A stretch of DNA of 64,000 bases from an uncultured Gemmatimonadaceae bacterium (GCA_963781585.1 CAWAGQ010000004.1:192001-256000), one strand, 5' to 3'. Positions 219 through 62,281 are shown, counted from the stretch's first letter. A program made the numbers and translations. Notes: generated by a model not told the origin, from the letters alone.

Positions 219-2723
219 GTGTCGGCGCGCATTGCGGCCAGCGCCGCGGCGGGGATCCGCACGGCGATCAGCCTGGCCGGCGGCAGGGAAGTGTGTTTCG
301 TCTGCACGGCCGACGCGGACGGCAGCGTGGTCACCGCACGGGTGGTTTCCAGGGGCGATGTGCGCGGCGTGCTCGCACTCCCCGGGTTCGCCCAGCGCGG
401 CGAACTGCTGCTCCACAACCATCCCTCGGGAATCCTGGAGCCGTCGGATCCGGATCTGGAGATCGCGGCGCGGATGCACGACCAGGGCGTGGGCTTCGCC
501 ATCACCAACAACGACGCGACCGATCTCTACGTGGTGGTGGAGGTGCCGCGGGTCCGACCAGTGATTCGGGTCGATCTGGCGGAGATCGAAGCCGAACTCG
601 GTCCGGACGGCGACATCGCCCGCCTCCACGCGCGCTACGAGGACCGTCCGGGGCAGCGTGCCTACGCGCGATCGGTGGCCCGGCTGTACAACGGTGGCGG
701 CATCGGACTCCTCGAAGCCGGTACCGGGATCGGCAAGTCGTTAGGCTATCTGCTTCCGGCGCTGCGCTGGGCGGCCGCCAACGGGGAGCGTACCATCGTC
801 TCCACCAACACCATCAACCTCCAGGAGCAGCTGGTCGGCAAGGACCTCCCGTTTCTCGCGCAGGCGCTGCGGGACCAACCGGTGCGATTCGCGCTGCTCA
901 AGGGATGGCGGAACTACCTCTGCCTCCATCGGCTCGACCAGGCCCGGTCGGCCGGCACCACCCTGTTCGATGCCGACGCGGAGGGCGATCTCGAGATGCT
1001 CTCGGCGTGGGCGGCGCGCACGCGCGACGGAACGCGCAGCGACCTGCCGGTCGAGCCTCGCGACGAGGTGTGGGACGAGGTGGCGGCGGAATCCGACCTC
1101 TGCCTGCGGCTCAAGTGCCCGCATTTCGACCGCTGCTTTCTCTATGCGGCCCGGCGTGAGGCGGCGCAGGCCGACGTCATCGTGGTGAATCATCACCTGC
1201 TGCTCGCCGATCTGGCGGTGCGTCGAAGCACCCAGAACTGGGAGGACGCCGCGGTCCTTCCCCCCTACCGGCGTCTGGTGATCGACGAAGGGCACCATCT
1301 GGAGGACGCGGCGGCCGCCCACCTGGGGGCATCGATCTCCCGGAGGGGCCTCGATCGGTTGCTCACCCGCCTGGAGCGCCGCGGCAAGGGGCTCCTTCCG
1401 ACGCTGGCCGCCAGGCTCGAGGGGCGGAAGGATCTGCTGAGCGTGGCGAGCCTCGACCTGGTGCATGCGCGCCTCTTCTCCTCGGTCCGCGCGGCAGCTG
1501 CGAAAGGGGGGCTGGTGTTCGACCTGCTCGACACCGTGCTGGTGGAAGCCTCGCAGCCGGTCCTTCGGGTGGACGACGCCTTTGGCGAACACCCCGCGTG
1601 GCGTGGCGGGCTGCGGGCCGCGCTCGACGATCTGGTGGGGGAATTGGCGCTGCTGGCCGATGGACTGCGCCTGGTGCGAGAGCGGCTCGAGCAGGACCCG
1701 CTTGCCGCCGAGCAGGTCGCCGCGCTGATCGGAGAGGTGCGCGGCGTGACGCGCCGGCTCCAGGCCGCGGGCGACGCACTGCGATCGGGCCTCTCGCCCT
1801 CTCCCGACGCACCGCCGGCCGTGCGCTGGATGGAAATCCGCGGACGGGACCGCAATCTGGCGGTGACGTCGGTGCCGCTGGACCTGGCGCCGATTCTGCG
1901 CGACGACCTGTTCCGGCGTCTCGAGACGGGCGTGGTGACCAGCGCCACGCTTGCCGCCGAGGGGCGTTTCGACTTTCTGCGGGGGCGGCTGGGGCTGGAC
2001 GAGCCCGATGTGGAGCCCGAGTGCGGCGTGTTCCGGTCGCCGTTCGACTTCTACTCTCAGTCGGTGCTGGGGATCCCGATCGATTTTCCGGCGCCTAACG
2101 ACGATCCGCGCGCGCACCTGGACGCCGTCTCGTCGGCGGTGGCCGAACTGGTCGAAATGGCGGACGGCGGCGTGTTCGCGCTGTTCACGAGTCATCGGGA
2201 CGTGCGTCTGGTGGCCGAGGCGCTGCGTGCCCGCGGGATCGACCGGCGATGGCCCCTGCTGGTGCATGGGGACGAAGGGCGCGATGTGTTGTTGCGCCGA
2301 TTCCGGGAGACGGGGCGCGGCGTGCTGCTCGGCACGGCGAGTTTCTGGGAGGGGGTGGATGTGCCCGGACAGCCGCTGCGGGTGCTCGTGCTTGCGAAAC
2401 TTCCGTTTCGCGTTCCCACCGAGCCGCTCACCGCCGCGCGAAGCGAGGCGGTGGAGGCGCGGGGTGGGAATGCCTTCCTCGACTACCTTCTTCCGGACGC
2501 GGCCCTCAAACTCAAGCAGGGCTTCGGACGCCTCATCCGGACGACTGAGGACTACGGCGCCGTGGTGCTGATGGATCCGCGGGTCTTCACCCGGTCGTAT
2601 GGCGCGTCGTTGGTGGACGGCCTCCCGCCCGCCCGCCGCGTCGTGGGCCCGTGGGATGAGGTGCGACGCGAGATCGCGAAGTTGTTCGCCCACGTGTCGC
2701 CCACCGCCCTCACCGTGCGCTAG
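219..2723 (+). CDS. DinG/YoaA-family Fe-S helicase with N-terminal JAB/MPN (RadC-like) domain
   Basis: Walker A EAGTGIGKS, DEGHH motif II, Fe-S cysteines (C..CLRLKC...C), FWEGVDVPG, QGFGRLIR; N-terminal HNHPSG..PS..D. Confidence 0.92.
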   Translation: MSARIAASAAAGIRTAISLAGGREVCFVCTADADGSVVTARVVSRGDVRGVLALPGFAQRGELLLHNHPSGILEPSDPDLEIAARMHDQGVGFAITNNDATDLYVVVEVPRVRPVIRVDLAEIEAELGPDGDIARLHARYEDRPGQRAYARSVARLYNGGGIGLLEAGTGIGKSLGYLLPALRWAAANGERTIVSTNTINLQEQLVGKDLPFLAQALRDQPVRFALLKGWRNYLCLHRLDQARSAGTTLFDADAEGDLEMLSAWAARTRDGTRSDLPVEPRDEVWDEVAAESDLCLRLKCPHFDRCFLYAARREAAQADVIVVNHHLLLADLAVRRSTQNWEDAAVLPPYRRLVIDEGHHLEDAAAAHLGASISRRGLDRLLTRLERRGKGLLPTLAARLEGRKDLLSVASLDLVHARLFSSVRAAAAKGGLVFDLLDTVLVEASQPVLRVDDAFGEHPAWRGGLRAALDDLVGELALLADGLRLVRERLEQDPLAAEQVAALIGEVRGVTRRLQAAGDALRSGLSPSPDAPPAVRWMEIRGRDRNLAVTSVPLDLAPILRDDLFRRLETGVVTSATLAAEGRFDFLRGRLGLDEPDVEPECGVFRSPFDFYSQSVLGIPIDFPAPNDDPRAHLDAVSSAVAELVEMADGGVFALFTSHRDVRLVAEALRARGIDRRWPLLVHGDEGRDVLLRRFRETGRGVLLGTASFWEGVDVPGQPLRVLVLAKLPFRVPTEPLTAARSEAVEARGGNAFLDYLLPDAALKLKQGFGRLIRTTEDYGAVVLMDPRVFTRSYGASLVDGLPPARRVVGPWDEVRREIAKLFAHVSPTALTVR

Positions 2724-2877
2724 ATTCGCCCACCCACCCATGGTTCCCTCCCACGGCGCGCACGCGGAACCGGGCGAGACTCGATGGTCGTGTTCGCGCG
2801 CCGCCGACCACCGATGATCGCTGGACGCGGAACCCCTGTAGCTGATAACTCACTTCGTCTGAGAACCGATCCATCCC

Positions 2878-6966: not shown

Positions 6967-7057
6967 CGGAGACGGAGGGATTCGAACCCTCGATACAGGT
7001 GTAAGCCCGTATAACGGTTTAGCAAACCGCCGCCTTCAGCCTCTCGGCCACGTCTCC
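6967..7057 (-). tRNA. tRNA-Ser(GCT)
   Basis: Reverse complement GGAGACGTGGCCGAGAGGCTGAAGGCGGCGGTTTGCTAAACCG...GGTTCGAATCCCTCCGTCTCCG; long variable arm; no encoded CCA. Confidence 0.95.
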
Positions 7058-7479: not shown

Positions 7480-8787
7480 ATGATTGCGTGCAGAGGCATC
7501 TTTGTGTGGTCGACCCTCCTGTTGCTCGCGGCGGGCGCGGGCGCGCAGGTCGCGCCAGTGCCCCGTGCGGACTCCGCCTCGGAGGTACTGCCGCGCGTCT
7601 TTCTCGATTGTCAGGCGGATGGGTGTGACACGGATTTCCTGCGCACCGAGCTCACCTGGATGAACTTCGTGCGCGATCGGAACGTCGCGCTGGTGCACAT
7701 TCTCGCCACCGACCGATCGACCGCCTCCGGGGGACGCGAGATCACCATCGCGTTCATCGGGCAGGACTCGCTGAGCGCGGTGGTGGACACGATCGTGCAA
7801 TTCGCGCCGTTGGGGGCCACGGACGACGAGCAGCGGCGGTTGGTCGCGCGGACCATCGCCCAGGGCATGCTGCGGTTCGTACGGGCGTCGCCGCTGGCGA
7901 CGCAGCTGAGCGTCGTGTACCGTCCCCGCCCCGGTGGGCTGATCGTAACGGATACGCGTGGCGCCCGCGACCGGTGGCATCTCTGGGTCTTCCGCATCGG
8001 CGCCAGCGGGTTCCTGAACGGTGATGAGAACTACAAGTCCTCGTCCTTGTCGGGCTCGGTGCGGGCCACCCGGACGACCGAGCGCTGGAAGGCGAGTCTG
8101 TCGGTCAGCGGCGACTACCGGGAGAACAGCTACGCGCTCTCGGACAGCGAGACGCTGGTGACGTATCGTCACGGCTACAACGTCGACGGTCTGGTGGCCA
8201 GGAGTTTGAGCACCCACTGGTCGTTAGGCGTGCAGGCGAACGCGGCCTCGTCAGTAGTCTCCAATCTCGACCTCGGGCTGCGAGTGGGGCCGGCGCTGGA
8301 ATACGACGTTTTCCCGTACTCGGAGTCGACCAGGCGGCAGGTCATCGTGCGGTACGGCGTGGGCGTAAAGGCGCTCAACTACTCGGACGTGACGATCTAC
8401 GACAGGACCAGCGAGACGCTGGTCGATCATCGTCTGGTGGTGGCGGCCGAGATGACCCAGCCCTGGGGCGAGCTCGGCGCCGACGTGTCGGTGAACCAGT
8501 ACCTGCACGACATGACCAAGCGGAGCTTCAACGTTGGCGTGGGGGTGAGCTGGCGCGTGCTCACCGGTCTCAACCTCAATCTCGACGCCGGCTATTCGCA
8601 GATCCGCGATCAGATCAACCTCAAGCGCGCCGAGCTGACGGACGAGGATGTGCTGCTGCAGCTGCGTCAGTTGCGGACCGGGTATTCGTACTACGGGAGC
8701 GTGGGGCTCAGCTACACGTTCGGGTCGATTTTCCAGAACGTGGTGAATCCGCGGATGTCGCGGAACAACGGCAACTTCTTCTTCTAG
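7480..8787 (+). CDS. Hypothetical exported outer-membrane beta-barrel-type protein
   Basis: Signal peptide, alternating beta-strand pattern rich in Y/G/S, terminal Phe residues. Confidence 0.75.
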   Translation: MIACRGIFVWSTLLLLAAGAGAQVAPVPRADSASEVLPRVFLDCQADGCDTDFLRTELTWMNFVRDRNVALVHILATDRSTASGGREITIAFIGQDSLSAVVDTIVQFAPLGATDDEQRRLVARTIAQGMLRFVRASPLATQLSVVYRPRPGGLIVTDTRGARDRWHLWVFRIGASGFLNGDENYKSSSLSGSVRATRTTERWKASLSVSGDYRENSYALSDSETLVTYRHGYNVDGLVARSLSTHWSLGVQANAASSVVSNLDLGLRVGPALEYDVFPYSESTRRQVIVRYGVGVKALNYSDVTIYDRTSETLVDHRLVVAAEMTQPWGELGADVSVNQYLHDMTKRSFNVGVGVSWRVLTGLNLNLDAGYSQIRDQINLKRAELTDEDVLLQLRQLRTGYSYYGSVGLSYTFGSIFQNVVNPRMSRNNGNFFF

Positions 8788-9818: not shown

Positions 9819-9919
9819 AATTTGGCCATGATACCGGAGCCAACACGTCCGGGCATGTACACACCCGATCCGCCAACCCGCGAGCCGCTCGCCTAACGCG
9901 GCAGCGGCCCTAGTTCCAA

Positions 9920-10005
9920 CGGAGGGCACAGGATTCGAACCTGTAAGGGTGTCTCCACCCGGCGGTTTTCAAGACCGCTGCCTTACCAGTTAGGTCTAGC
10001 CCTCC
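9920..10005 (-). tRNA. tRNA-Ser(TGA)
   Basis: Reverse complement GGAGGGCTAGACCTAACTGGTAAGGCAGCGGTCTTGAAAACCGC...AGGTTCGAATCCTGTGCCCTCCG; anticodon loop CTTGAAA; long variable arm. Confidence 0.93.
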
Positions 10006-10103: not shown

Positions 10104-10775
10104 CTAGCGCCGTTTGCGCCGGCGCGCCACCGCGCCACTCAGCATCCCGACCAGGCCCGTGCCCATCAGCGCCAGCGACGCCGGCTCGGGGGCCACCGTC
10201 GGTCCGGGTCCTGGATCAACTGTCGGACTGGCGCACGAGGAATCGTACGGCCCGTTGTTCGCCACGCCGTTCGTTACAACCAGCTTGGTGGAGCAATCGT
10301 TGGGACCCGCCTGCCCGTGGATGGCCCAATTCGCGGTATTGAGACTGGCGAACGTGGGTCCCGAGATGCGGAACGTGAACTGCGTCGTCTGGCCAGGCTG
10401 CAATCCGTTCTTCACGGGAGAGGGATTGGGATGCACTCCCCCCGCGTTCTTGGTGATGCCGGCGCCCGACAGGCCGTTCGTCCCGAGCGACCACGACCCC
10501 GGTCCCACCACCGAGAGCGATCCGTTGACGTAGCTGAAGTTCGCCACGCCGAACAGACCCATGGCGGTGAAGATGGTGCCGCCATAGGTGCCGTTGAAAC
10601 CGGCGTTGTTGGTCACCATCATCACGATCTCCGTGATGCTGGACGTGATCGACGTCTTCGTAATCGAGACCGAAGCACAAGTCGAGAATGTATTCCCGCC
10701 GCACACCTGCGCCTGCGCCACGTTAGGCACCACCGAAACAAGCGCCGCAACCGTTGCTGCTCGAACGAACTTCAT
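10104..10775 (-). CDS. PEP-CTERM sorting-domain surface protein
   Basis: Signal peptide (AQA), S/T/G/N-rich body, C-terminal VAPEPASLALMGTGLVGMLSGAVARRRKRR; AAGGAG RBS upstream. Confidence 0.93.
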   Translation of the reverse strand: MKFVRAATVAALVSVVPNVAQAQVCGGNTFSTCASVSITKTSITSSITEIVMMVTNNAGFNGTYGGTIFTAMGLFGVANFSYVNGSLSVVGPGSWSLGTNGLSGAGITKNAGGVHPNPSPVKNGLQPGQTTQFTFRISGPTFASLNTANWAIHGQAGPNDCSTKLVVTNGVANNGPYDSSCASPTVDPGPGPTVAPEPASLALMGTGLVGMLSGAVARRRKRR

Positions 10776-19678: not shown

Positions 19679-22431
19679 AGCGTTGCGACCTTCGCGGCGA
19701 GCTGCTGCCGGCGGGTGCTCCACTCGGTCTCGCGGCGGCGCTCGGCGTCGACGACGTCGGGCTTCGCTCTCGACACGAAGGTCGGGTTCTCGAGGCGGGC
19801 GCGCAGCGCGGCCAGCCGCTGATCGAGCGCTTCCAACTCACTGCCGAGCCGCGAGCACTCCTTGTCGATGTCGATCGCACCCGCGAGCGGCAAGACCACT
19901 TCGGTGCCGTCGACGAGGACGGCGTGCGCGGCGGGCCCGGTGGGCGCATCTGCAGCCAGCGTTGCGGTGCACCGGGTGAGCCGGCCGATGAGGCCGGCCT
20001 CGGCGGCGACCGCGGCCTGTGCGTCCTCACCAGGAACGATGACGAGCGGAAGGGTGGTGGCAGGCGGGATCGCGTAGTCGCCGCGAAGCTGCCTGGTGGC
20101 GGTCACGATCTCCCGCACGAGATCGAAGGAGCTGGTCTCGCCCGGCACGTCCCGCGGTCGCGGCCACGGCGCAGAGGCGAGGAAGTCCTGTTCGGTGATT
20201 CCCGGAAGCCGTTGCCACAGGGTCTCGGTAACGAACGGGACGATTGGTTGCAGGAGGCGAAGCGCCTGGTCGAAGGCGTACACCAGCACCGCGCGCGCCA
20301 CGTCACCGTCGTCGGTGCTGGCGAGGCGGCCGCCCTTGACCGACTCGAGGTACCAGTCGGCGAGCTCGTTCCACACGAATGCGCGCGCCGCCTCGGTGTA
20401 TTCGTTGAGTCGCAGGCCGGCCGTCCGCTCCCGGGCGGTCCAGCCGCCGGCGGTGGGGCGCGCGGGCCCGAGGGCGGCGTCGCAGGCTGCCACCGCCGCG
20501 TTCACCCGACCGAGGATCCAGCGATCGGCGCTGGTGAGCCGTCCGGGCGCGATGGCGTCCAGGTCGGTGACCGGTGCGGTGCCGACATGGGTGAGCAGGT
20601 AGCGGCCGATGTTCCACAGCTTGGTAACGAAGTTCCGTCCCGGGGCGAACGACCGATCGAGGTCGCCGGGGTCGAGAATCGTATCGGCGCCGAGTCCCAT
20701 GCCGGCGATGACGGTGTAGCGCAGGGCGTCGGCGCCGTAGAGCGACACCACGTCCAGCGGGTCGATCCCGTTGCCTAACGATTTGGACATCTTCACGTGC
20801 GACGTGTCGCGCACCGTGCCGTGCAGGTACACGGTATGAAATGGCGCCTCGCCCAGGAAGGCGAAGCCGTTCATGATCATCCGCGCGACCCAGAAGAACA
20901 GGATTTCGGGCGCGGTGATGAGGGCGTCGGTGGGATAGAAGGCGCGCAGGTCGGGCGTCTCATCGGGCCAGCCGAGGGTGGAGAATGGCCACAACCCGGA
21001 GGAGAACCAGGTGTCGAGCACATCCTCGTCCTGGCGCACCGGGCCGGAACACGCCGGACACCGGGTGAGATCATCGCGACTGGCGGTGACCTTGCCGCAC
21101 CCGTCGCAATACCAGACCGGGATGCGGTGTCCCCACCAGAGCTGCCGCGAGATGTTCCAGTCGCGGATGTTCTCCAGCCAGTTCACGTATACGGCCTCCC
21201 AGCGCTCGGGCAGGATTCGCACTCCGCCGTCGCGCACCGCCTGCAGCGCGGGCTCGGCGAGCGGTCGCATGCGCACGAACCACTGCTCCGAGAGACGCGG
21301 CTCCACCACCGTGTCGCACCGGTAGCAGCGCCGCAGCGCCACCCGGTACCGCTCCTGCTTCACCAGCAGCCCCTCAGCGTCGAGCATCCGCACGATCTGC
21401 TTGCGGGCCTCGAAACGATCGAGGCCGCGAAGCTCGTCGGGCACGCGTCCACCGGCATCCATCACCTCGCGCATCGCGCCGTGCTCGTCGATCACCACCG
21501 GCATCGCCAGCTGATGCCGCTGCGCCACCTCGAAATCGTTGGCGTCATGCGCCGGCGTGATCTTCACCACGCCGGTCCCGAAGGCCGGATCGGTGAATTC
21601 GTCGGCGATCACCGGGATCTCGATCCTGGCGATGGGCAACGTGACGGTGCGTCCCACCAGATCGGCATAGCGTTCGTCGGCCGGATGCACGGCCACCGCC
21701 ACGTCGCCCAGCATGGTTTCGGGCCGGGTGGTGGCCACCACCAGGCGCGGCTCGGTCGACCCTCGTGGCGCCGCCGTGAGTGGGTAGGCGATGTGATACA
21801 GGGTGCCGTCCGTCTCGTGGTGCTCGGCCTCTTCGTCGGACAGCGACGTAAGGCACCGTGGGCACCAGTGAATGACCCGGTGCCCCCGATAGATGAGGCC
21901 CCGTTCGTACAGGCGCACAAACGCCTCGCGAACGGCGCGCGAGAGCTGTGGTGACAGTGTGTACGCGGTGCGCGTCCAGTCGGCCGACGATCCGATCGCA
22001 CGCAACTGCTCGAGGATCGTGCCGCCAGTCTCGGCCACGAACCCCTCCGTCCGCTTCACGAAGGCCGCCCGGCCGATGTCGTGGCGCGACACTCCCTCCT
22101 GCACCAGCAGCTTCTCCACCACATTCTGCGTGGCGATGCCCGCGTGGTCGGTTCCGGGAACCCACAGGGTCTCGTCGCCGCACATGCGGCGCCACCGGAT
22201 GATGACGTCCTGGACCGTGTTGTTCAGCCCGTGCCCCATGTGCAGGACCGCGGTGACGTTCGGCGGAGGCATCACGATCACGAACGCGTCCCGGTCGCCG
22301 CCGGAGCGGCGCGACCGGGAGGCGTTCGCCGTGAAGAGGCCGGCCGCCATCCAGCGCGCGTAGAGCGGACGCTCGACGGCGGCCGCATCGTACTGCGGGG
22401 GAAGGTCGGTCAGGAGAGGCGTCGCGGACAC
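19666..22431 (-). CDS. valS: Valine--tRNA ligase
   Basis: PPPNVT..LHMGH, DHAGIATQ, ISRQLWWGH, DVLDTWFSS, KMSKS. Confidence 0.97.
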   Translation of the reverse strand: MSATPLLTDLPPQYDAAAVERPLYARWMAAGLFTANASRSRRSGGDRDAFVIVMPPPNVTAVLHMGHGLNNTVQDVIIRWRRMCGDETLWVPGTDHAGIATQNVVEKLLVQEGVSRHDIGRAAFVKRTEGFVAETGGTILEQLRAIGSSADWTRTAYTLSPQLSRAVREAFVRLYERGLIYRGHRVIHWCPRCLTSLSDEEAEHHETDGTLYHIAYPLTAAPRGSTEPRLVVATTRPETMLGDVAVAVHPADERYADLVGRTVTLPIARIEIPVIADEFTDPAFGTGVVKITPAHDANDFEVAQRHQLAMPVVIDEHGAMREVMDAGGRVPDELRGLDRFEARKQIVRMLDAEGLLVKQERYRVALRRCYRCDTVVEPRLSEQWFVRMRPLAEPALQAVRDGGVRILPERWEAVYVNWLENIRDWNISRQLWWGHRIPVWYCDGCGKVTASRDDLTRCPACSGPVRQDEDVLDTWFSSGLWPFSTLGWPDETPDLRAFYPTDALITAPEILFFWVARMIMNGFAFLGEAPFHTVYLHGTVRDTSHVKMSKSLGNGIDPLDVVSLYGADALRYTVIAGMGLGADTILDPGDLDRSFAPGRNFVTKLWNIGRYLLTHVGTAPVTDLDAIAPGRLTSADRWILGRVNAAVAACDAALGPARPTAGGWTARERTAGLRLNEYTEAARAFVWNELADWYLESVKGGRLASTDDGDVARAVLVYAFDQALRLLQPIVPFVTETLWQRLPGITEQDFLASAPWPRPRDVPGETSSFDLVREIVTATRQLRGDYAIPPATTLPLVIVPGEDAQAAVAAEAGLIGRLTRCTATLAADAPTGPAAHAVLVDGTEVVLPLAGAIDIDKECSRLGSELEALDQRLAALRARLENPTFVSRAKPDVVDAERRRETEWSTRRQQLAAKVATLCGG

Positions 22432-31168: not shown

Positions 31169-31231
31169 GCAGCGGGCAGGCTCCAGCCTCGACCGGAATC
31201 CCGGGCCCCCACCGGGAATGCCGGCGCCCGC

Positions 31232-36794: not shown

Positions 36795-37868
36795 ATGAAG
36801 GTCTTCGATCTCCTCTCCGAGATGGGCCACGAACAACTCGTGATGTGCCACGACAAGTCGTGTGGCTACCGCGGCATCATCGCCATCCACGATACGACCC
36901 TCGGCCCGGCGCTGGGTGGAACCCGGTTCTGGAACTACCGGACCGACGACGAGGCGATCGTCGACGGACTCCGGCTGGCGAAGGGCATGACCTACAAGAA
37001 CGCCGTGGCCGGCCTGAATCTGGGTGGCGGCAAGGCGGTGATCATTGGCGACAACCGCACCACGCGACGGGAGATGCTGTTCCGCGCGCATGGGCGATTC
37101 GTGGAGTCGCTCGGCGGCCGATACATCACTGCCGAGGACGTCGGCACCACGAGCGCCGACATGGACTTCGTCCACATGGAGACCGAATACGTTGCGGGGC
37201 TGACGACCCGGTCAGGCGATCCCTCGCCGGTCACCGCGCGGGGCGTGTTCCGGGCGATTCAGGCGGCGGCGCATGAGCGCTGGGGAAGCGACGGGGTGGC
37301 CGGGAAGACGGTCGCCGTCCAGGGACTTGGACACGTGGGATATTTCCTGTGCCGGGAACTGCACGGGGCGGGCGCACGGCTCATCGTCACGGATATCGAT
37401 GCGGCCAAAGTCGAGCGCGCCGTGGCCGACTGCGGCGCCCGCGCGGTGAGTGCCGACGAGATCTATGCCGTGCCAGCCGACATCTTCTCGCCGTGCGCGT
37501 TAGGCGGCGTGCTGAACGACGATACCATTCCCCGCCTGCAGGTCGAAATCGTCGCCGGCGGCGCCAACAACCAGTTGCTCGAGGAACGGCATGGCGACGT
37601 GCTCGAGCAGCGGGGTATCCTGTATGCCCCCGACTTCGTCGCCAATGCCGGCGGCGTGATCAATGTGTACGGCGAGATCGCCGGGTGGACCGCGCCACGC
37701 GCGTTGCGCAAGGCCGACGAGATCTACCAGACCATGCTGGGCGTGTTCGAGATCGCGCGCGAGCAGAGGGTCCCGACCCACCTGGCCGCCGACCGGCTTG
37801 CAGAGCGACGGCTGAACGCGGTTGGCGGCCTGGTGCGCACCTGGCCCCAATGGCCGCGCAAGAGTTGA
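36795..37868 (+). CDS. Leucine dehydrogenase (Glu/Leu/Phe/Val dehydrogenase)
   Basis: LGPALGGTR, GMTYK, GGGKAV, TAEDVG, GDPSP, ANNQL. Confidence 0.94.
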   Translation: MKVFDLLSEMGHEQLVMCHDKSCGYRGIIAIHDTTLGPALGGTRFWNYRTDDEAIVDGLRLAKGMTYKNAVAGLNLGGGKAVIIGDNRTTRREMLFRAHGRFVESLGGRYITAEDVGTTSADMDFVHMETEYVAGLTTRSGDPSPVTARGVFRAIQAAAHERWGSDGVAGKTVAVQGLGHVGYFLCRELHGAGARLIVTDIDAAKVERAVADCGARAVSADEIYAVPADIFSPCALGGVLNDDTIPRLQVEIVAGGANNQLLEERHGDVLEQRGILYAPDFVANAGGVINVYGEIAGWTAPRALRKADEIYQTMLGVFEIAREQRVPTHLAADRLAERRLNAVGGLVRTWPQWPRKS

Positions 37869-38432: not shown

Positions 38433-39721
38433 GCGACTGGCACGAATGGGACCGATGTCCGCCGGGCCCCGCTCTCCGCGAGGCCGACCCCCAGGTGGCG
38501 CGCCTCATCGACCGCGAAATCGAACGGCAGTCCGACGGGCTCGAGCTGATCGCCAGCGAGAACTTCGTGTCGCCAGCCGTACTCGAAGCCCTTGGCTCGC
38601 CGCTGACCAACAAGTATGCCGAAGGTCTGCCGCGCAAGCGTTACTATGGCGGGTGTGAGGTGGTGGACGAGCTCGAGCAGCTCGCGATCGATCGCGCCAA
38701 GGCCTTGTTCGGTGCCGAGCACGCCAATGTCCAGCCGCACTCGGGCGCCTCGGCGAACTTTGCGGCTTGCTTCGCCTTCCTGAAGCCGGGTGAGACGCTC
38801 CTCGGCCAGGACCTCTCGCAGGGCGGGCACCTCACCCATGGATCGCCGGTGAACTTCTCGGGGATTCTCTACCGGGCGGTGCACTACGGGGTGAACGATC
38901 TCGGCTACATCGACTACGACGCGTTGCGCGATATCGCTCGCCGGGAGCGGCCGCGCCTGATTCTCGCTGGCGCCAGCGCCTATCCCCGGTTCATCGATTT
39001 CGCGGCGTTCGCGGAAGTGGCGGCCGAAGTGGGGGCGGTTCTGATGGTGGATATGGCACACATCGCCGGGCTCATCGCCACCGGTCTTCATCCCTCGCCG
39101 GTACCCCACGCCGATGTCGTGACCAGTACGACGCACAAGACACTTCGCGGGCCGCGCGCCGGTCTCATTCTCTGTCGTGCCGCGCACGCCAAGCTGATCG
39201 ACAAGGCGGTGTTCCCGGGTTCCCAGGGCGGGCCGCTCGAACACGTCATCGCGGCCAAGGCCGTGGCGTTCCGCGAAGCGGCGGAGCCGTCGTTCCGGGA
39301 CTACTGCGCGCAGGTGGTCGCCAATGCCCGTGCGCTCGGAGACGGGCTGTCCGAGCGGGGATACCACCTGGTCTCCGGCGGAACCGACAACCATCTGTTG
39401 CTGGTGGACCTTCGCAACAAGGGGCTCACCGGCAAGGCGGCGGAGCAGGCGCTGGACCGTGCCGGCATCACCGTGAACAAGAACACCGTTCCCCGCGAGA
39501 CGCAGTCGCCGTTCGTGACCAGTGGGGTGCGGATCGGGACCCCGGCGCTCACCACCCGGGGCATGAAGACGGACGAGATGCGGCGCATTGCCGGCATGAT
39601 GGACCGGGTGCTGGCCGCGCCTAACGACGAACTCGTGGCCACCGAGGTGCGCACCGAGGTAAAGGAAATGACGGCGGCGTTCCCGCTCTACCCCGCGCCC
39701 ACCGCTATCGCAGCGGACTGA
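38429..39721 (+). CDS. glyA: Serine hydroxymethyltransferase
   Basis: [31 protein letters not shown]. Confidence 0.97.
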
Positions 39722-40441: not shown

Positions 40442-40493
40442 CGCCGCCGCCGGATCCGCGCCGCGCCCGGCCGCCGCTGCGCGGCGAGCGCGC

Positions 40494-41423
40494 CTAACGC
40501 ATGAAGACGCTGCGCGCCACGAACCAGGCGTTCGCCGGCCGCTCGGCAAGGCGCCGCATGTACCACGGGAACCACTGGCTGCCGTAGCTGATCAGGCAGC
40601 GAACCGCGCGCCCCTCGGCGGCCAGCGACCGCTGCTCGGTGGACCGAATGCCGTACAGCATGTGGATCTCGTAGCCTCCGGGTCCCACGTTCAGTCGGGC
40701 GGCCCGGGCCACCAGGTGGCGGATGATATTCAGGTCGTGCGTTCCGAATACCGGGAACGCGGCGTCGGCCGCTGCCGCGTTCAACAACCGCTCGCCGACC
40801 GAAATGTACTGGGCATCCACGTCCTTCTTCGACGGAAAGGCCGCGTCGGGAGGTTCAGCGTAAGCGCCCTTCACCAGCCGGATCCAGGGCCGCACCTCGA
40901 GCAGCGCCTCCACGTCCTGCGGCGTGCGCCGCAGGTATGCCTGCAGGCAGACCCCCACCGGTTCGTACCGCTCACGGAGCTGTCGATACAGCGACAGCGT
41001 CCGGTCCACGTACGTCGAGTCCTCCATGTCGATCCACAGCTGGCTCCCGGTGGCCGTCGCCTTGGCGGCCAGCGCCGCGAGGTGGTCGAGGCAGACGTCA
41101 AACGAGAGGTCGAGGCCCAGCTGAGTGGGCTTTACCGAAATGACCGCGGGCAGTCCCGCGCGTTGGACCAGGTCGTACGCTTCCAGGTAGTGATCGCGAA
41201 CGCCGTCGGCCTGCGATTCGCCCGTGAGGGTCTCCCCCAGTCGCGTAATGACGGATCCGATGCGCACGCCGGTGAGTTGCCTGGCGGCGGCCAGCGCATC
41301 GGCGAGCTCCTCGCCGGGCATGAATCGCTTGAGGGCGCGGCGCGCGAACGGCCGCCGCATGAACCGGTGCGCGAGCCACGGGCTCTTCGAGGCGCGCAGG
41401 AAGACACTTCGGGCGATGGACAT
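40494..41423 (-). CDS. Monofunctional proline dehydrogenase
   Basis: SVKPTQLG, IDMED, QAYLRR, RLVKGAY, THD, MLYG, YMRRLAERPAN. Confidence 0.93.
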   Translation of the reverse strand: MSIARSVFLRASKSPWLAHRFMRRPFARRALKRFMPGEELADALAAARQLTGVRIGSVITRLGETLTGESQADGVRDHYLEAYDLVQRAGLPAVISVKPTQLGLDLSFDVCLDHLAALAAKATATGSQLWIDMEDSTYVDRTLSLYRQLRERYEPVGVCLQAYLRRTPQDVEALLEVRPWIRLVKGAYAEPPDAAFPSKKDVDAQYISVGERLLNAAAADAAFPVFGTHDLNIIRHLVARAARLNVGPGGYEIHMLYGIRSTEQRSLAAEGRAVRCLISYGSQWFPWYMRRLAERPANAWFVARSVFMR

Positions 41424-43318: not shown

Positions 43319-43750
43319 CTAGCGGTCCTGCTCGCGCGGCCGGGCAGTGTAGCACCACGCTTCGCCCTCCAACACCGTGTCGCCCGCCTGATTGGTGACC
43401 TTTACCGCCAGCTGCGTCACCGGCTTGGTGGGGTGCACGTGCAGCACTTCGACGTCCGCCGTGATCGAGTCACCGACGTAGACCGGGGCGGTGAACTTCC
43501 AGCTCTGGCTCAGGAACACCGTTCCCGGGCCGGGCAGATCCATCGCCACCAGCGCGTGCAGGAGACCAGTCGTTAGGCCGCCCTGCGTGATGAGACGTCC
43601 GAACCGCGTTCCGGCGGTAAAGGCCTGGTCGAAGTGCAGGGGGTTGCGGTCGCCGGTCAGCTGCGCGAACGCTTCCACGTCGCCCGCCGTGATGGTGGCG
43701 CTCCGCGAGGCGCGATCGCCCACGCGCGGCGGGCCGGCCGGCTCCGTCAC
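43319..43750 (-). CDS. MaoC-family dehydratase
   Basis: TGDRNPLHFD, LPGPGTVF, F.APVYVGD; GTGA overlap with the upstream gene. Confidence 0.9.
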   Translation of the reverse strand: MTEPAGPPRVGDRASRSATITAGDVEAFAQLTGDRNPLHFDQAFTAGTRFGRLITQGGLTTGLLHALVAMDLPGPGTVFLSQSWKFTAPVYVGDSITADVEVLHVHPTKPVTQLAVKVTNQAGDTVLEGEAWCYTARPREQDR

Positions 43751-44694
43751 TCCTCGGGCGGGCCACCGGCCCGCGCGACCTGGTCGGTCTTGATCTTCGC
43801 CGCGTCGAACCGGCGCGCACTCGCCAGCATCTTGTCGATCGTCTCGTCGAAGTCCGCTACCGCCCGTCGCTGGAACCGGAGCGGGTTGATACGTGCCACT
43901 ACGAACGCCCGCAGGTACGGGCTCTCGAACCCGCGCTTCTTGAGTAACGCCACGGCCTCGCTCACCGCCTCGTTCAGTTCCAGCAGCTTGGCCGCACGCG
44001 CCCGCCGCGTCTCCAGGGCAGTGGGCAACCTGGACGCCAGGAACTTGTCGCAGCGCTTGAGGACGCTGTGATACGCGCCGCCGGCGAAGCGCCCGTTCTG
44101 CTGGTAGCACAGCCCGAGTGTGATCAGTGCCGGCTCCTCGAACTCGGCAGAGAACTCCTTCTCCGGGCGGTCGTCCAGGGCCGCCAGCCCCTCGGCGAGC
44201 CGCGACACTTCGAGCGCGCGCTCCCGCAGGTTGTGCGCCTTCTCGGTGTTGAGCAGCAGGATGCGATGCGCCACTTCCGGCTCGGGAACGACGATAGCCA
44301 CGATGGACTTCGCGCCCAGTTCGCGCATCGCGCCCAGACGATGGTGCCCGTTAGGCGTCCAGTACTGCCCATCGTCGGCCGGCACGGCGACGATCGGATC
44401 GAGGTAGCGGTCGAGCCGGTCGATCGCCGACGACAACCGCTGCACGTGCAGTGCCGACAGGTCCCGCTGATACGGCGTGGGCGCCACCTTCGCGAGCGGA
44501 AGCGCGGCCAGCACCTGCCAGTGACCGCCAAGCGGGTCGCGGTAAGTGGCCAGGACATCACCGCCGTCGGCCATGACGCGCTCGGCCAGCCGCTGAATGG
44601 TGGCCGGCGGTTCCGCGGTGGCGAGCCGTCGCGCGTCGAGCCCCCGGGATGCGGCGGGGACCGCTGTCTTTCGTTTGCGTCGGACGGCGGGCAT
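43747..44694 (-). CDS. ParB/Srx N-terminal domain protein
   Basis: PTPYQRDLS, LDPIV, TPNGHHRL. Confidence 0.8.
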   Translation of the reverse strand: MPAVRRKRKTAVPAASRGLDARRLATAEPPATIQRLAERVMADGGDVLATYRDPLGGHWQVLAALPLAKVAPTPYQRDLSALHVQRLSSAIDRLDRYLDPIVAVPADDGQYWTPNGHHRLGAMRELGAKSIVAIVVPEPEVAHRILLLNTEKAHNLRERALEVSRLAEGLAALDDRPEKEFSAEFEEPALITLGLCYQQNGRFAGGAYHSVLKRCDKFLASRLPTALETRRARAAKLLELNEAVSEAVALLKKRGFESPYLRAFVVARINPLRFQRRAVADFDETIDKMLASARRFDAAKIKTDQVARAGGPPEE

Positions 44695-47942: not shown

Positions 47943-50882
47943 CTATTGAATCGGTCCTCCCTTGTGTACCTGCGGCACTCCGTCGGTCATCCACTGCGGG
48001 GCGGGAGCCCCCTTCAGGTAGTGGTCGAAGAACTGCTTCATGCGCACCTGGAAGTCCTTCTGGTTTTCCTTCTTCGCCAGGTGATGCGGCTCGTCCGGAT
48101 AGGAGAGGAAGATCACCTGCTTGCCGTTGCGCCGCGCGGCGTTGAAGAACTGCAGGCCTTCGACCCAGTCCACCGCGCCATCCGCCGTTCCCTGCAGAAT
48201 CAGAAACGGCGTCTTGATGTTGCGCACATTGTAGACGGGGGACTGGCTCTCGTAGAGATCGTGTGAATTCCAGGGCGTGACGTTGTCTCCCATGCGCACC
48301 TGACCCACTTCGGTGATGCCCTGCTGGACGGTCCCCGTCTGCTTGTAGAGTTCGTCGTAGAAACTGATGAGGTTCGTGGGCGGAGCGCCGGTCACGACGG
48401 CGGCAAAGATGTCGGTCTGTGTGAGGATGTACGACGACTGATATCCACCCCAGCTGTGTCCCTGCAGCCCGATGTGGGCCGGATCCGCATAGCCGAGGGC
48501 GATCACCTTCTTCACCGCCGCCGTCACGCAGTCCACCGCCGAGGTCCCCGGTTTGCCGATCTCGTAGACCACGTCGGGCTGCAGCACCAGGTAGCCATCG
48601 CTGGCGTACTCCGACATGTGTGGCCGATCGTCGTACACCGGCATCGAGAACGAGTGATGCGTGTTCGACATGATCTCGTAGAAATAGACCAGCATCGGGT
48701 ACTTCTTCCCGGGTTGGTAACCGGCGGGGAGGGTGAGGGTAGCCTGGAGGCGCCGTCCCTTCGAGTTCTTGTAATCGATGAGTACCTTCGAGCCCCAGGC
48801 GTACTCGCTCAGTTGCGGGTTGGCGTCGGTGACCCTGGTCGGGTTGCTGTATGACGTCGAAGCCACCCAGTAGTCGGGAAACTCGTTGAAGGTCTGCTCG
48901 GTGTAGAGCACGCGGTCGGCCTCGGACGCCTTCTGCGGAGTCCCGAACTGTTTGTCCTCCCAGCGAAGGGGCGCCGGCGCCTGACCCGGCGCGACACGCC
49001 AGAATCCTGTCTTCTTGGTCCACTCGCCGTACGCCGACAGAGTGAGCGGCTGGCTCAGATCGATTCCCGCGTCCTCCGCGCTGCCTCCGCCAAAGCCCCC
49101 GCCGCGGCCGCCGCGACCGCCCGCACCATAGCGCACCAGATGGAATTCGATTTGCTGCGCCGCCCCGATGCCCCTGGTGAGGTTCACGGCCTTGCCGCCA
49201 TCGAGCGGGAGCTGCCACAGATCGTACTTGTCGTACAGCAATACGGAGTGTCCGTCCTTCGACCATCCTGCCACGCCGAACACCGGCTTCTCGTAGTCGT
49301 GGTCGTCTTCGTCGTTCACGAAGCTTCGACCGGCGGCCGCATCCACCGCGATCGCCTTGCCGGACTCCAGATCGTACGCCATGACGTGCTTGTTCTGGAG
49401 GTAGAGGAACCACCGCCCGTCGGGCGAGATGCCCATCGTGCGCGTGAGCTTCGACGCAATTGGTGTCCGCTCCCCGGTCTCGAGACTCACCCGGTAGTAG
49501 TCGGCGTGCCCCCCACTCCACGCCACCTCACCACGGTAGGTCGTATCGTTCCGCCCCACCGCCCACTTCCCGTTAGGCGAGGTGGACAGGGTGCGCATGG
49601 CGCTGTCCGCCAGCACCAGGAATCGTCCGGAACCCACCAGCAGCTCGCCGGGATAGGTTGCGCGCCGCTCCTGCTGCAGACGCACCATCTGTACTGATTG
49701 CGGTTCGGCATCCTTCCAGTGCCAGACATCCACGTTGGCCCTGGGTTCCTCGCTGCGTGGTGGCTCGGGCTCCTGTTCCTTCACTCCCACGAAGATACGG
49801 GCGCCGTCCGCACTCCAGCGCGGCGGCGTGAACTCGCTGATCACCATCCCCTTTGGGAAGGCCGCGTCGTGCGAGGGATCATACGTCAGATTCCGCGAAC
49901 CTGTCGTGCCGAGGGCCGTCCACGCGAGGAGTGTGTTGTCCTTCTGGCGGTTGGCGCGCTGCTTTTCGCCACGCAGGACGGCGAGGTTCGATCCCGAGTC
50001 ACTCCACGCCAGTTGATCGTAGTCTGCCGCGGCTCCATCCAGAGTCTGCGCGAGGCCGCTCGCGAGCTCGAGCAGATAGATCCCGTTGCCGAGCCGACTG
50101 GTGGCGTCGACCGTGTAGGCGAGCAGGCGGCCCGCGTCGTCGAAGTCGTACTGGACGACGTTGCCGACGTTGCGGATCGTCCCGGTGGAGAGGTCGCGCA
50201 CGAGGAGATCGGTGCCCTGTACACTCGTGTCCGCCCCGGCAGCCCGGTTGAGGCGCACAGCCAGCCAGTGCGATCCCTTGGAGAACTGGAATCCGGCAGG
50301 ATTCGGAACGCTGAACTTGGCGCCGTTCGTCAGATCCAGCAGTTCCAGCCGCCGCTGACCACGGCCTCCGCTGCCCCCTCCGGGAGCCCCGCGGCCCGGA
50401 CTCTGCGCGCCTGGCGGCACGGCGCCGCGGCTCCCGCGCCCGCTCGCGCCGGGTGCCGGCGTCGGCGGATTCACGTAGTACGCCACCCAGTGCGAATCGT
50501 CGGAGAACTGCGGTCCTCCGCCGCCGCCCCCGCCACCGAAGCCGCCGCCGCGACCGCCGCCGGCCGGAGCGCCAACGGACGTGGAGTACACCGTGGTCCC
50601 GTCCAACTGCTTCACGAAGAGCGTCGCGTCGCCATCGTTGGGTTGATACGTGTAGGTGACCCACTTGCCATCCGCCGACAGCGACGCCGCGGTAATGCGG
50701 TTCCATGTCGCGTAGTCGCTCAGCCCCAGAACCTTCAGGCTCGGTGACGCCGCCCTTGCGGTCGTCGCGACGGTCGCAACGCGCGCGCTTTGTTGAGCGC
50801 GTGCAGACCGTCCAGGCGCGATCCAGGCAACCAAGGCGAAAACCAGCGGCCAACGTGATGACGAGCGACGCATGGGACGCAT
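47943..50882 (-). CDS. S9 family (prolyl oligopeptidase-like) exported peptidase
   Basis: GHSWGG nucleophile, DGAV, EPHH; N-terminal beta-propeller; signal peptide. Confidence 0.93.
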   Translation of the reverse strand: MRPMRRSSSRWPLVFALVAWIAPGRSARAQQSARVATVATTARAASPSLKVLGLSDYATWNRITAASLSADGKWVTYTYQPNDGDATLFVKQLDGTTVYSTSVGAPAGGGRGGGFGGGGGGGGPQFSDDSHWVAYYVNPPTPAPGASGRGSRGAVPPGAQSPGRGAPGGGSGGRGQRRLELLDLTNGAKFSVPNPAGFQFSKGSHWLAVRLNRAAGADTSVQGTDLLVRDLSTGTIRNVGNVVQYDFDDAGRLLAYTVDATSRLGNGIYLLELASGLAQTLDGAAADYDQLAWSDSGSNLAVLRGEKQRANRQKDNTLLAWTALGTTGSRNLTYDPSHDAAFPKGMVISEFTPPRWSADGARIFVGVKEQEPEPPRSEEPRANVDVWHWKDAEPQSVQMVRLQQERRATYPGELLVGSGRFLVLADSAMRTLSTSPNGKWAVGRNDTTYRGEVAWSGGHADYYRVSLETGERTPIASKLTRTMGISPDGRWFLYLQNKHVMAYDLESGKAIAVDAAAGRSFVNDEDDHDYEKPVFGVAGWSKDGHSVLLYDKYDLWQLPLDGGKAVNLTRGIGAAQQIEFHLVRYGAGGRGGRGGGFGGGSAEDAGIDLSQPLTLSAYGEWTKKTGFWRVAPGQAPAPLRWEDKQFGTPQKASEADRVLYTEQTFNEFPDYWVASTSYSNPTRVTDANPQLSEYAWGSKVLIDYKNSKGRRLQATLTLPAGYQPGKKYPMLVYFYEIMSNTHHSFSMPVYDDRPHMSEYASDGYLVLQPDVVYEIGKPGTSAVDCVTAAVKKVIALGYADPAHIGLQGHSWGGYQSSYILTQTDIFAAVVTGAPPTNLISFYDELYKQTGTVQQGITEVGQVRMGDNVTPWNSHDLYESQSPVYNVRNIKTPFLILQGTADGAVDWVEGLQFFNAARRNGKQVIFLSYPDEPHHLAKKENQKDFQVRMKQFFDHYLKGAPAPQWMTDGVPQVHKGGPIQ
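47945..48131. repeat. Second copy of the 187-bp direct repeat (functional 3' end of the S9 peptidase)
   Basis: Matches 45864-46050 at a constant offset of 2081 bp. Confidence 0.9.
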
Positions 50883-54990: not shown

Positions 54991-54991
54991 C

Positions 54992-59279: not shown

Positions 59280-59432
59280 GAGGTCTCCCGTTAGGCCGTG
59301 GACCGGCGCGTGCGCGCTGTCGTCCCGACAGCGGGGGGATGGGACGCGCGGCGAACAGGTGAAGGAAGCGGCGCGCCCAACCTGCAATGCACTGCATCCG
59401 CCGTCAACGGTGAAGCCCCTCACACGATCGCG

Positions 59433-60672: not shown

Positions 60673-60705
60673 TCGGAGCCGCTCGCCGCGGGCCCGAGGA
60701 GTCCG

Positions 60706-62244
60706 ATGAGCGTGCGCGTGGTTACCGCAGCCCAGTCTGCCTCACGGGACGCGGCCGCGATCGAGGCCGGCACGCCGTCGCGGAGCCTCATGGAGAACGC
60801 CGGCGCCGCTGCTGCCGGCGTCATCAGACGGCGATTCGGACCGCACCTCGGCGATGGCGTAGCGATCTTCGCCGGCCCCGGCAACAATGGCGGCGACGCC
60901 TGGGTGGTGGCCCGGCACCTGGCGGCATCCGGTTGTGCCGTACGCGTGGTAGAGGCCGGCGAGAGCCGTACCGGCGATGCCGCCGCGGCCCGCCAGGCGG
61001 CGCTGGGCCATGTCTCGTTAGGCGATCCCACAGGACGCGAACGCGTGGTGGTCGATGGGCTCCTCGGGACGGGGTCGCGCGGTGCGCCGAGGGGGCCGGT
61101 TGCCGGCGCGGTGGACCGCGTGCGCCGCCTGCGCGCCGATGGCGCTGCCGTGGTGGCACTGGACGTTCCCACCGGCATCGACGCGTCGAACGGCGCCGCG
61201 GCCGGAAACGTCGATGCCGACGTGACCGTGACGTTCGGCGCGATCAAGCGCGGGCACCTCGTGGCGCGCGGCCAATGCGGCGCCGTGGTCGTGGTCGACA
61301 TCGGACTTGGTGACTGCGCGGAGCTCGACGACGGCGCTCCCCGGTTGATCGACGAGGCCTGGGTCGCCGGGCGTATCCCGCCGATTCCGGCTGAGGCACA
61401 CAAGGGAGTTCGGCGGCGCATTGCCATCGCAGGGGGTGGCGCGGGCATGGCCGGCGCCTGCATCCTCGCCGCGCGGGCCGCCATGCGAAGCGGCGTCGGG
61501 ATGGTGCGACTGGTCGTCGAGAAGGCGTCCCTCGCTGCCGTGCAGAGCGCGGCGGTCGAGGCCACCGCCGCCACCTGGCCGATGGCCGATGCCGGATTCG
61601 GGAGCCAGGTCGCCGACTATGCCCACGCCGTGCTTGCGGGTCCCGGCCTGGGTCATGCGGCCGCGCAGCGTGCCTTCCTGGAGCAACTGCTCACCGCATG
61701 GCGCGGCCCGACGGTGCTCGACGCGGACGCGCTCAACATCTTCGCCGGCGAGGTGCCCGCGCTGGCGCGCCTCCTCGGCGGCCGGCCCACCATCATCACA
61801 CCGCACCCGGGCGAGCTGGGACGCCTGATCGGACTTTCCACGGACGAGGTGGTGACCCAACGATTCGAGGTGGGGAAGGAAATCGCACGCGACCTGCGCG
61901 CCGTGGTACTGCTGAAAGGCGTGCCGACGGTGGTGTTCGCCCCGGATGGCGAGATCCTCGTGAGCGCGGCGGGAACACCGGCGCTGGCCGCGGCCGGGAG
62001 CGGGGACGTGCTTGGCGGCATCGTGACGACCCTGCTGGCGCAGAGCGGCGAGGCGTTCATCAGCGCTGCGTGCGCGGCATGGGCGCACGGGCGCGCGGCT
62101 GAACTGGCCAACGCCGGACGCCCTGTGCGCGGCGTCGTCCTCGACGACGTCGTTGGCGCGCTGGCGGACGTCTGGCGCTTCGATGGGGCGCGGCCCGAAC
62201 CGCCGGTGATGGCCGAGCTGCCGCGGGTGGGCGATGGGCCGTGA
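60706..62244 (+). CDS. nnr: Bifunctional NAD(P)H-hydrate epimerase/dehydratase
   Basis: LMENAG, GPGNNGGD, D.PTG, GPGLG, DADAL, TPHPGE, GSGDVL. Confidence 0.93.
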   Translation: MSVRVVTAAQSASRDAAAIEAGTPSRSLMENAGAAAAGVIRRRFGPHLGDGVAIFAGPGNNGGDAWVVARHLAASGCAVRVVEAGESRTGDAAAARQAALGHVSLGDPTGRERVVVDGLLGTGSRGAPRGPVAGAVDRVRRLRADGAAVVALDVPTGIDASNGAAAGNVDADVTVTFGAIKRGHLVARGQCGAVVVVDIGLGDCAELDDGAPRLIDEAWVAGRIPPIPAEAHKGVRRRIAIAGGGAGMAGACILAARAAMRSGVGMVRLVVEKASLAAVQSAAVEATAATWPMADAGFGSQVADYAHAVLAGPGLGHAAAQRAFLEQLLTAWRGPTVLDADALNIFAGEVPALARLLGGRPTIITPHPGELGRLIGLSTDEVVTQRFEVGKEIARDLRAVVLLKGVPTVVFAPDGEILVSAAGTPALAAAGSGDVLGGIVTTLLAQSGEAFISAACAAWAHGRAAELANAGRPVRGVVLDDVVGALADVWRFDGARPEPPVMAELPRVGDGP

Positions 62245-62281
62245 CAGCGGGCCCGGGGCACCTGACCGGGAGTCGTTAGGC

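Follow-up and report, generated by a model that had tools for sequence, protein, structure and literature searches.

An asymmetric octamer written into Gemmatimonadaceae genomes carries the signature of a DNA-uptake or self-recognition tag, and not of Chi

The octamer CGTTAGGC is strikingly frequent in a 64,000-nucleotide stretch of DNA (the window) from an uncultured Gemmatimonadaceae bacterium (GCA_963781585.1, CAWAGQ010000004.1; G000:C4:192001-256000 in our numbering), whose assembly, G000, comprises 17 contigs and 5.72 Mb with 67% GC, 93.5% completeness and 7.2% contamination. The reverse complement of this word, GCCTAACG, is not identical to it, so the word is asymmetric and non-palindromic; its loose form is YGTTAGGY, with C strongly preferred at both ends. 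In this study, we found that the word is a real and conserved feature acting at the DNA level: it is enriched throughout the genome, overrides codon preference, stands equally on both strands without replichore polarity, is restricted to certain lineages, and occurs in a genome that encodes the core genes of DNA import. Its genomic signature is that of a tag for uptake or self-recognition, and not that of Chi, and from this signature we infer its function and its reader. The best-fitting reading is a tag similar to the DNA-uptake sequences (DUS) and uptake signal sequences (USS) of other bacteria, an alternative already listed in an earlier note on this window; from the analysis as a whole we favour it tentatively and stop just short of calling it probable.

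In the window, there are 19 exact copies of the word, 14 on the plus and 5 on the minus strand, compared with 1.14 ± 1.06 (maximum 5) in dinucleotide-preserving shuffles. Every coordinate and strand given for them in the earlier note proved correct, and the six one-off variants listed there all exist, each with the GTTAGG core retained. The whole of G000 holds 1442 copies, spread over all 17 contigs at 0.19–0.34 per kb, for which Markov models of order 1, 2 and 3 predict 89, 44 and 51 copies, respectively. Synonymous shuffling of codons within genes gave 21.8 expected sense copies in coding sequences, with 734 observed (34-fold), and 33.4 expected antisense copies, with 341 observed (10-fold). 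This null is conservative, because the rare codons contributed by the word stay in it. Measured in this way, CGTTAGGC ranks first among the octamers of coding DNA (19-fold) and the runners-up are its own shifted overlaps, which bears out, with codons preserved, the over-representation that had been suspected from the window. A base-composition null gives an enrichment of only 6.7-fold and rank 59 among words with at least 200 copies, the approximately 58 higher words being codon-driven. A maximum-order Markov test did not flag the word, placing it near rank 17,000, and is uninformative here, since most occurrences of the 6- and 7-mers contained in CGTTAGGC come from CGTTAGGC itself; of the 2301 occurrences of GTTAG in G000, 1442 lie inside CGTTAGGC.

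Enrichment is graded among the one-off forms: it is 10.5-fold for CGTTAGGT and 3.9-fold for TGTTAGGC, both of them C-to-T changes at the two outer cytosines, and all one-mismatch forms together (among which is CGTTAAGC) reach 1.3-fold and the two-mismatch forms 0.95-fold. No conserved flanks were found from −12 to +12 around the G000 copies, where the information content is nowhere above 0.3 bit, and therefore the word is not part of a longer or mobile repeat. A dispersed repeat of the repetitive extragenic palindrome or miniature inverted-repeat transposable element type was thus ruled out, there being no conserved element longer than the core word. The spacing of copies is near-exponential (coefficient of variation 1.0), with gaps shorter than 200 bp scarce (20 versus 71 expected), and only two of these 20 close pairs face each other as +/−. 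Word density climbs with local GC content, from 1.1 per 10 kb at 60–63% GC to 4.1 at 69–71%.

To place the word in genes, we called genes with a crude GC3-based program and obtained 4212, which together span 80% of G000. The most frequent placement is sense NCG-TTA-GGC, encoding [ASTP]LG (691 copies), followed by antisense nnG-CCT-AAC-G, encoding xPNx (266), antisense nGC-CTA-ACG (73), and sense nnC-GTT-AGG-C (42), whereas 90 copies overlap the 3' end of a gene, two overlap a 5' end, and 278 lie between called genes. TTA accounts for 0.9% of the leucine codons of G000, and 692 of its 1359 occurrences are inside NCG-TTA-GGC. The word is borne by 15.7% of the 4409 [ASTP]LG sites, 24% of the 1122 PN[VADEG] sites and 3.1% of the 2336 [GRSC]LT sites, and it makes 64 of the 1424 TAG and 38 of the 311 TAA stops. 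Its density is 0.234 per kb in coding DNA and 0.22–0.27 per kb in all four spacer types, including the convergent, divergent and co-directional ones. Selection acts at the DNA and not the protein level, as had been proposed from the window: copies occur in several frames and in both orientations, as stops and in spacers, and the codons TTA, CCT and CTA are rare elsewhere. Most of the examples offered for that proposal were found again, i.e., KSLG in the DinG-like helicase and ValS, APND in the same helicase and in serine hydroxymethyltransferase (SHMT), and the TPNG copy. The word does supply the TAG stop of the HD_5/TPR gene, but neither a TAG stop of a proline dehydrogenase gene nor a GGC-CTA-ACG copy in a MaoC gene reappeared with the present gene calls; the copy at 62274 encodes ESLG in an AIR-synthase-related gene, and the gene at 60706-62244 is YjeF-like.

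The 2:1 excess of sense copies inside genes looks like a coding cost and not an RNA-level signal, because coding and spacer DNA are equally dense and the co-directional spacers hold 81 sense and 60 antisense copies. As antisense copies are still 10-fold enriched and these spacers show so modest a bias, an RNA-level or sense-only function was ruled out. A tRNA cause for the preference of the TTA frame over the CTA frame was also rejected, as tRNA-Leu(taa) and tRNA-Leu(tag) are both present. The 62 tRNAs that ARAGORN predicted in G000 include one tRNA-SeC and one tRNA labelled 'Stop', whose anticodon is given as tta.

The two strands of G000 carry 724 forward and 718 reverse copies, and forward and reverse counts are about equal in every word-rich genome surveyed. 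The count behind the 14:5 strand skew noted in the window is correct, but the skew itself is not significant (two-sided binomial p=0.064). With leading and lagging strands assigned by local GC skew, which correlates weakly with word orientation across G000 (rho 0.25), the intergenic copies divide into 73 leading and 81 lagging. Sense coding copies are 262 leading and 183 lagging (59%, where co-oriented gene bases make up 58%), and antisense coding copies 89 leading and 109 lagging. On the two arms of contig C4, with gene-strand fractions of 0.666 and 0.188, forward copies predicted from gene orientation are 81 of 149 and 33 of 82, and those observed are 91 and 28; the orientation residual beyond gene bias is small at most. 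The word is also carried by the cultured species Gemmatirosa kalamazoonensis KBS708, of which eight 50-kb pieces, drawn from the finished plasmid 1 (1.106 Mb) and plasmid 2 (1.04 Mb), contain 274 copies (141 forward and 133 reverse, 0.69 per kb). In no piece does one strand hold more than 68% of the copies, and the word read backwards, taken as a control, occurs four times in these pieces.

Conservation of the word could be followed between contigs C5 and C8 of the G000 bin, which are syntenic over 354 kb at 88.9% identity with parallel GC-skew profiles, and which seem to represent either a large replicon present in duplicate or two related genomes that were binned together. C5 has 112 copies, of which 87 align without gaps, and 74 of these 87 (85%) are identical in C8, compared with 36–51% of control octamers in the same codon-phase classes. 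The word is thus kept between relatives, a question the earlier note had raised. Of the 13 aligned copies that are changed in C8, three are in the CGTTAGGT form. Among the non-coding copies, taken separately, 9 of 13 are identical, versus 36% of controls. Word density is also higher where C5 and C8 are better conserved, climbing from 0.10 to 0.36 per kb. In an alignment of 17 ValS rows, the word falls on conserved TLG, SLG, ALG, CLT and PPN columns, its occupancy differs among the 11 word-rich rows, and all six word-poor rows keep the same residues without the word. At the SLG column of the window copy at 20773, the residues are present in 17 of 17 rows and the word in 7 of the 11 word-rich and none of the 6 word-poor rows. 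Because these columns are conserved with or without the word, it follows that synonymous point changes create the copies, which are then retained. The homologous stretches C8:283862-322251 and C5:298151-324259 are free of the word, have 62% GC, a weak coding signal and few Pfam matches, and resemble an island, common to both contigs, whose DNA is foreign or unusual.

In a survey of 301 Gemmatimonadaceae genomes, the distribution of the word is bimodal and mostly uniform within each genus, with about 93 genomes (a hand count of the survey table) having at least 300 copies and many genera having 5–60. The richest genome, G201, has 7821 copies in 6.1 Mb, or about 1.3 per kb, and the exceptions within word-rich genera are the word-poor G119, G278 and G301 (genus g56) and G300 (g55). 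Among 201 genomes sampled from the phylum, enrichment beyond the family was seen in genus g110 of family f2 only (181–1061 copies in five genomes); all 63 genomes of families f4–f12 have 70 copies or fewer, and G030 (family f3) has 345. The survey rows include the unpublished genomes G008, G046, G047, G145, G263, G281, G309, G353, G380 and G449, and no claim depends on any single one of them. The relatives of its ValS assign G000 to the Gemmatimonadaceae. In a FastTree phylogeny of 81 ValS rows, for which the support values are SH-like only, no fewer than three gains or losses are needed to explain the 13 word-rich rows; the window falls within a fully supported clade of nine rich rows, and the 41 rows on the Gemmatimonas side include no rich one. 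One row of this tree, L064, is titled Candidatus Kuenenia stuttgartiensis, yet its ValS nests in the Gemmatimonadaceae, and the contig or genome bin probably bears a wrong label or was mis-binned. Among word-poor relatives, a scan for alternative 'dialect' words, covering the valS loci longer than 10 kb among 80, found none, and the one strong match, in L074, was rejected as a (GTGACTA)n tandem array. This locus, from a word-poor Gemmatimonadaceae metagenome-assembled genome, has short tandem arrays of GTGACTA or its complement at 2729-2770, 4868-4923 and 22073-22093.

If the word is an uptake or self-recognition tag, it would be maintained at the level of double-stranded DNA, arising by point mutation where the protein permits and then being held. 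A surface or periplasmic reader, most plausibly a component of a type IV pilus, would prefer DNA bearing the word, and natural transformation with recombination would spread and preserve word-bearing alleles genome-wide. Competence of the cells, word-biased uptake and the identity of the reader are the steps that we infer. The densities of DUS and USS are similar to that of the richest relatives of G000. G000 encodes the import core: ComEC, DprA and a ComEA-like HHH_3 protein, together with three pilins of the PilA type and three minor-pilin clusters. A GspH/FimT-like pilin occurs in two of these clusters, and its fold class is that to which the DNA-binding FimT and the predicted USS receptor ComN/PpdA belong (PMC12616744). 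The DUS of Neisseriaceae and the USS of Pasteurellaceae, together termed DNA uptake enhancing sequences (PMC1939737, PMC12616744), resemble the word in being short and asymmetric, in having hundreds to thousands of exact copies, in equal use of both strands without replichore polarity, and in lying mostly inside genes in frames that encode common peptides. The likeness extends to an origin by point mutation and not insertion, conservation among relatives, lineage specificity, and the presence of type IV pilus and ComEC/DprA genes, as well as to graded one-off variants, the same pattern being stated in the abstract of one of these papers (PMC1939737). The word differs from DUS and USS in belonging to another phylum (Gemmatimonadota), in its sequence and shorter length (8 nt), in having neither conserved flanks nor an excess in spacers or terminators, in being confined to part of a family, with repeated gains or losses, and in that no ComP_DUS domain reaches the family cut-off here; uptake bias and competence are, for the word, predictions.

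Several observations weigh against this uptake reading. The sense enrichment is more than three times the antisense enrichment. A spacer or terminator excess was sought and not found in G000: spacers are about as dense as coding DNA and inverted close pairs are rare, whereas DUS show an excess in intergenic regions and in terminator-like inverted pairs. Nor is the word depleted in lineage-specific DNA, as the unaligned DNA peculiar to C5 has 0.25 copies per kb, a density equal to that of aligned DNA. The longest word-free stretch, 38.7 kb at C4:866742-905435, contains core genes (alaS, recX, recA, ftsK, accBC, lptD and tol-pal), and only about 0.07 gaps of that length are expected. The syntenic DNA is word-poor only in the low-density G001 (same genus) and G005, and the word-rich G009, G061 and G201 have 13–20 copies in each 20 kb of it, by which a region-specific exclusion was ruled out. 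Transformation genes are equally present in word-poor relatives, ComEC being encoded in 30 of 31 relatives whether word-rich or not. The contrast within genus g56 is mixed, since word-poor G119 retains ComEC and DprA; in G278 the ComEC match is split over two frames, and DprA was not found in G301 (88% complete). The DUS receptor of Neisseria is the minor pilin ComP, and the best match to the ComP_DUS domain in G000, at 19.9 bits versus a cut-off of 27.3, is on an ordinary pilin. None of the candidate readers follows the word among the 31 genomes: the PilA-type pilin is in all 31, the three minor-pilin cluster proteins are in 15, 27 and 18 and do not track the word-rich genomes, and the GspH-like pilin has its best full-length matches in word-poor genomes. 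In the literature, we found no paper on the topic that pairs Gemmatimonadetes or Gemmatimonadota with 'DNA uptake sequence' or 'natural competence'. Searches for the word itself returned no description, only unrelated matches of the primer type, and no paper pairing GTTAGGC with Gemmatimonad*.

Other readers of the word have to be weighed against an uptake receptor. The word may be the target of a cytoplasmic modification or repair system (a methyltransferase, mismatch or nicking activity), with biased repair or site selection creating and preserving copies, as proposed for HIP1 of cyanobacteria. HIP1 (GCGATCGC) is an 8-nt palindrome that occurs about once per kb in coding DNA, is conserved, and has been linked to cognate methyltransferases; the word shares the length, the placement in coding DNA and the conservation, but is asymmetric. 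We regard such a system as unlikely, yet worth serious attention, as it would likewise give strand symmetry, no polarity, equal coding and spacer density, and conservation; moreover, the C-to-T changes in the enriched one-off forms are those that deamination of methylated C would yield, and the patchy distribution on the ValS tree suits an accessory gene. However, fully specified, asymmetric 8-bp sites are unusual among known methyltransferases, and the sole C5 methyltransferase found in G000 belongs to an island that does not follow the word. This enzyme shares a 790-aa frame with Vsr and is followed by an EcoRII endonuclease gene (C7:477177-479892), inside a word-free stretch of 24.5 kb, and this island is probably a CCWGG system because of the shared Vsr frame, the EcoRII neighbour and the lack of the word around it. 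Vsr was detected in 4 of the 31 relatives, namely G000 and the word-poor G002, G007 and G028, and was not found in the word-rich G001, G005, G009, G014, G015 and G030; with three of its four carriers word-poor and the Dcm-Vsr frame of G000 in an EcoRII island, a Vsr-type repair drive was rejected. The HIP1-like methylation suggested in the earlier note was examined in this Vsr form only, other methyltransferase families not having been searched. The top words of the maximum-order Markov test all contain AGGCCA/TGGCCT and may be the footprint of another modification or repair system. A binding site for an abundant chromosome-organising or self/non-self protein, needed every few kb without any link to uptake, seems quite improbable to us, although the uniform density across coding DNA and all spacer types, the scarcity of close pairs, the strong conservation, and the presence of the word on megabase-sized Gemmatirosa plasmids (0.69 per kb) would all agree with it. 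No candidate protein is known, the known nucleoid proteins bind degenerate sites, and the approximately 50-fold range of density among carriers and the word-free 38.7-kb core stretch are hard to square with a structural need.

The Chi-like recombination hotspot for a helicase-nuclease that the earlier note preferred shares with the word its over-representation and conservation in core genes, and with one copy per 4 kb G000 comes close to the density of Chi in Escherichia coli; contig C4 also has the slight leading-strand surplus given above. Nevertheless, both this and the FtsK-orienting polar sequences (KOPS), likewise over-represented octamers in core genes, are unsupported because the word has no leading-strand polarity, RecC was not found in the 93.5%-complete G000, and PDDEXK_1 gave only weak matches (31 and 21 bits, in frames of about 560 aa), so that neither a RecBCD- nor an AddAB-type helicase-nuclease was recognised there. 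The copies are balanced in spacers, in the whole genome and in the KBS708 replicons, the skew in coding DNA equals the gene-orientation bias, and we know of no Chi site reported with an enrichment as large as this. We therefore hold a Chi-like role to be very improbable, and KOPS were rejected for want of strong polarity toward dif, although an FtsK with the gamma domain is encoded in G000. The resemblance of the core to the integron consensus GTTRRRY, also pointed out in the earlier note, is real: GTTAGGC fits it, the 7-nt core is identical to that of the attC R' site (G|TTAGGC), and local attC sites end in the full octamer CGTTAGGC. In word-poor relatives, many copies are in arrays with a period of 500–700 bp, and the G021 arrays are classic attC sites, i.e., imperfect palindromes of about 95 nt reading GCCTAAC...CCGTTAGGC, with one of two arrays examined adjoining an integrase fragment. 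G000 itself encodes a full integron integrase (IntI) at C7:185885-186829 on the minus strand (434 bits; cut-off 265), and the attC arrangement is seen in 8 of the 20 close word pairs of this genome. Nevertheless, that the genome-wide copies are secondary recombination sites of this integrase is barely credible. A GTTRRRY core within an imperfect palindrome of 60–130 nt is found in the G021 arrays and in a few G000 pairs, but not in the 1442 dispersed copies, which are without attC-like flanks, and cassette insertion into core genes would be harmful. IntI was found in four of the seven word-rich relatives and in 16 of the 24 others, and was not found in G009 (the richest of the 31, 92% complete), G005 or G015, and the integrase was ruled out as the reader on this account. 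Because IntI does not track the word, the shared core may be either a coincidence or an indirect link. A further reading, which we consider a long shot, is an uptake or self tag that is deliberately the same as the local attC core (C-G|TTAGGC) and would couple transformation to the cassette pool; its reader would be a new, horizontally mobile factor conferring specificity, with no fewer than three gains or losses in the family. If it were true, every Gemmatimonadales cassette would carry an entry ticket for word-reading lineages.

To our knowledge, sequence-specific DNA-uptake tags are established in just two proteobacterial families. If the word is such a tag in the Gemmatimonadota, an abundant and little-studied soil phylum, self-biased gene exchange would be wider than thought, and the word would offer a handle on gene flow in soil communities. 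The genera that lack it and the word-poor members of word-rich genera are natural contrasts for finding the reader, and the cultured carrier G. kalamazoonensis KBS708 makes the uptake idea testable at the bench. If the reader is not an uptake receptor, the word would represent a new kind of genome-wide DNA mark. From a practical point of view, it can serve to spot foreign DNA and wrongly binned contigs in metagenome bins of Gemmatimonadaceae.

The copies in the window comprise eight in the sense TTA frame, six antisense CCT-AAC, one TAG stop, and four between called genes; they are listed with the one-off forms in Table 1.

Table 1. Exact copies of CGTTAGGC and one-off forms in the window (positions from the first nucleotide of the window; genes on the minus strand are marked (-)).
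Position	Strand	Form	Placement	Codons	Peptide
739..746	+	exact	sense, DinG-like helicase gene 219-2723	AAG-TCG-TTA-GGC	KSLG
2093..2100	-	exact	antisense, DinG-like helicase gene 219-2723	GCG-CCT-AAC-GAC	APND
4288		TGTTAGGC			
8222..8229	+	exact	sense, gene 7480-8787	TCG-TTA-GGC	SLG
9891..9898	-	exact	between called genes, 22 bp from tRNA-Ser 9920-10005 (-)		
10721..10728	+	exact	antisense, gene 10104-10841 (-)	GTG-CCT-AAC-GTG	VPNV
13353		TGTTAGGC			
15551		CGTTAGGT			
20773..20780	-	exact	sense, valS 19666-22566 (-)	AAA-TCG-TTA-GGC	KSLG
24928		CGTTAGGT			
27023..27030	+	exact	sense, gene 25456-27555	ACG-TTA-GGC	TLG
27823..27830	+	exact	antisense, gene 27635-28003 (-)	GTG-CCT-AAC-GAC	VPND
31163..31170	+	exact	supplies TAG stop of HD_5/TPR gene 29420-31168	CGT-TAG	
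35174..35181	+	exact	sense, 3-hydroxyacyl-CoA dehydrogenase gene	TCG-TTA-GGC	SLG
35465		GGTTAGGC			
37498..37505	+	exact	sense, Glu/Leu/Phe/Val dehydrogenase gene	GCG-TTA-GGC	ALG
39619..39626	-	exact	antisense, SHMT (glyA) gene	GCG-CCT-AAC-GAC	APND
40492..40499	-	exact	between called genes		
43571..43578	+	exact	between called genes; its TAG would close putative ORF 43169-43576		
44349..44356	+	exact	antisense, gene 43747-44694 (-)	ACG-CCT-AAC-GGG	TPNG
49571..49578	+	exact	antisense, S9 peptidase gene 47943-50957 (-)	TCG-CCT-AAC-GGG	SPNG
57267		CGTTAGGT			
59289..59296	+	exact	between called genes		
61016..61023	+	exact	sense, YjeF-like gene 60706-62244	TCG-TTA-GGC	SLG
62274..62281	+	exact	sense, AIR-synthase-related gene 62234-63244	TCG-TTA-GGC	SLG

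Outside the subject of the reader, contig C7 of G000 has a chromosomal integron at C7:150000-187000, with many intergenic word copies and attC-like pairs on one side of IntI. Another tyrosine-recombinase gene is present in three identical copies (C7:172407-173237, C7:183006-183836 and C13:309021-309851) and probably belongs to an insertion sequence. The window also contains two tRNA-Ser genes, both on the minus strand, at 6967-7057 and 9920-10005 (anticodons gct and tga).

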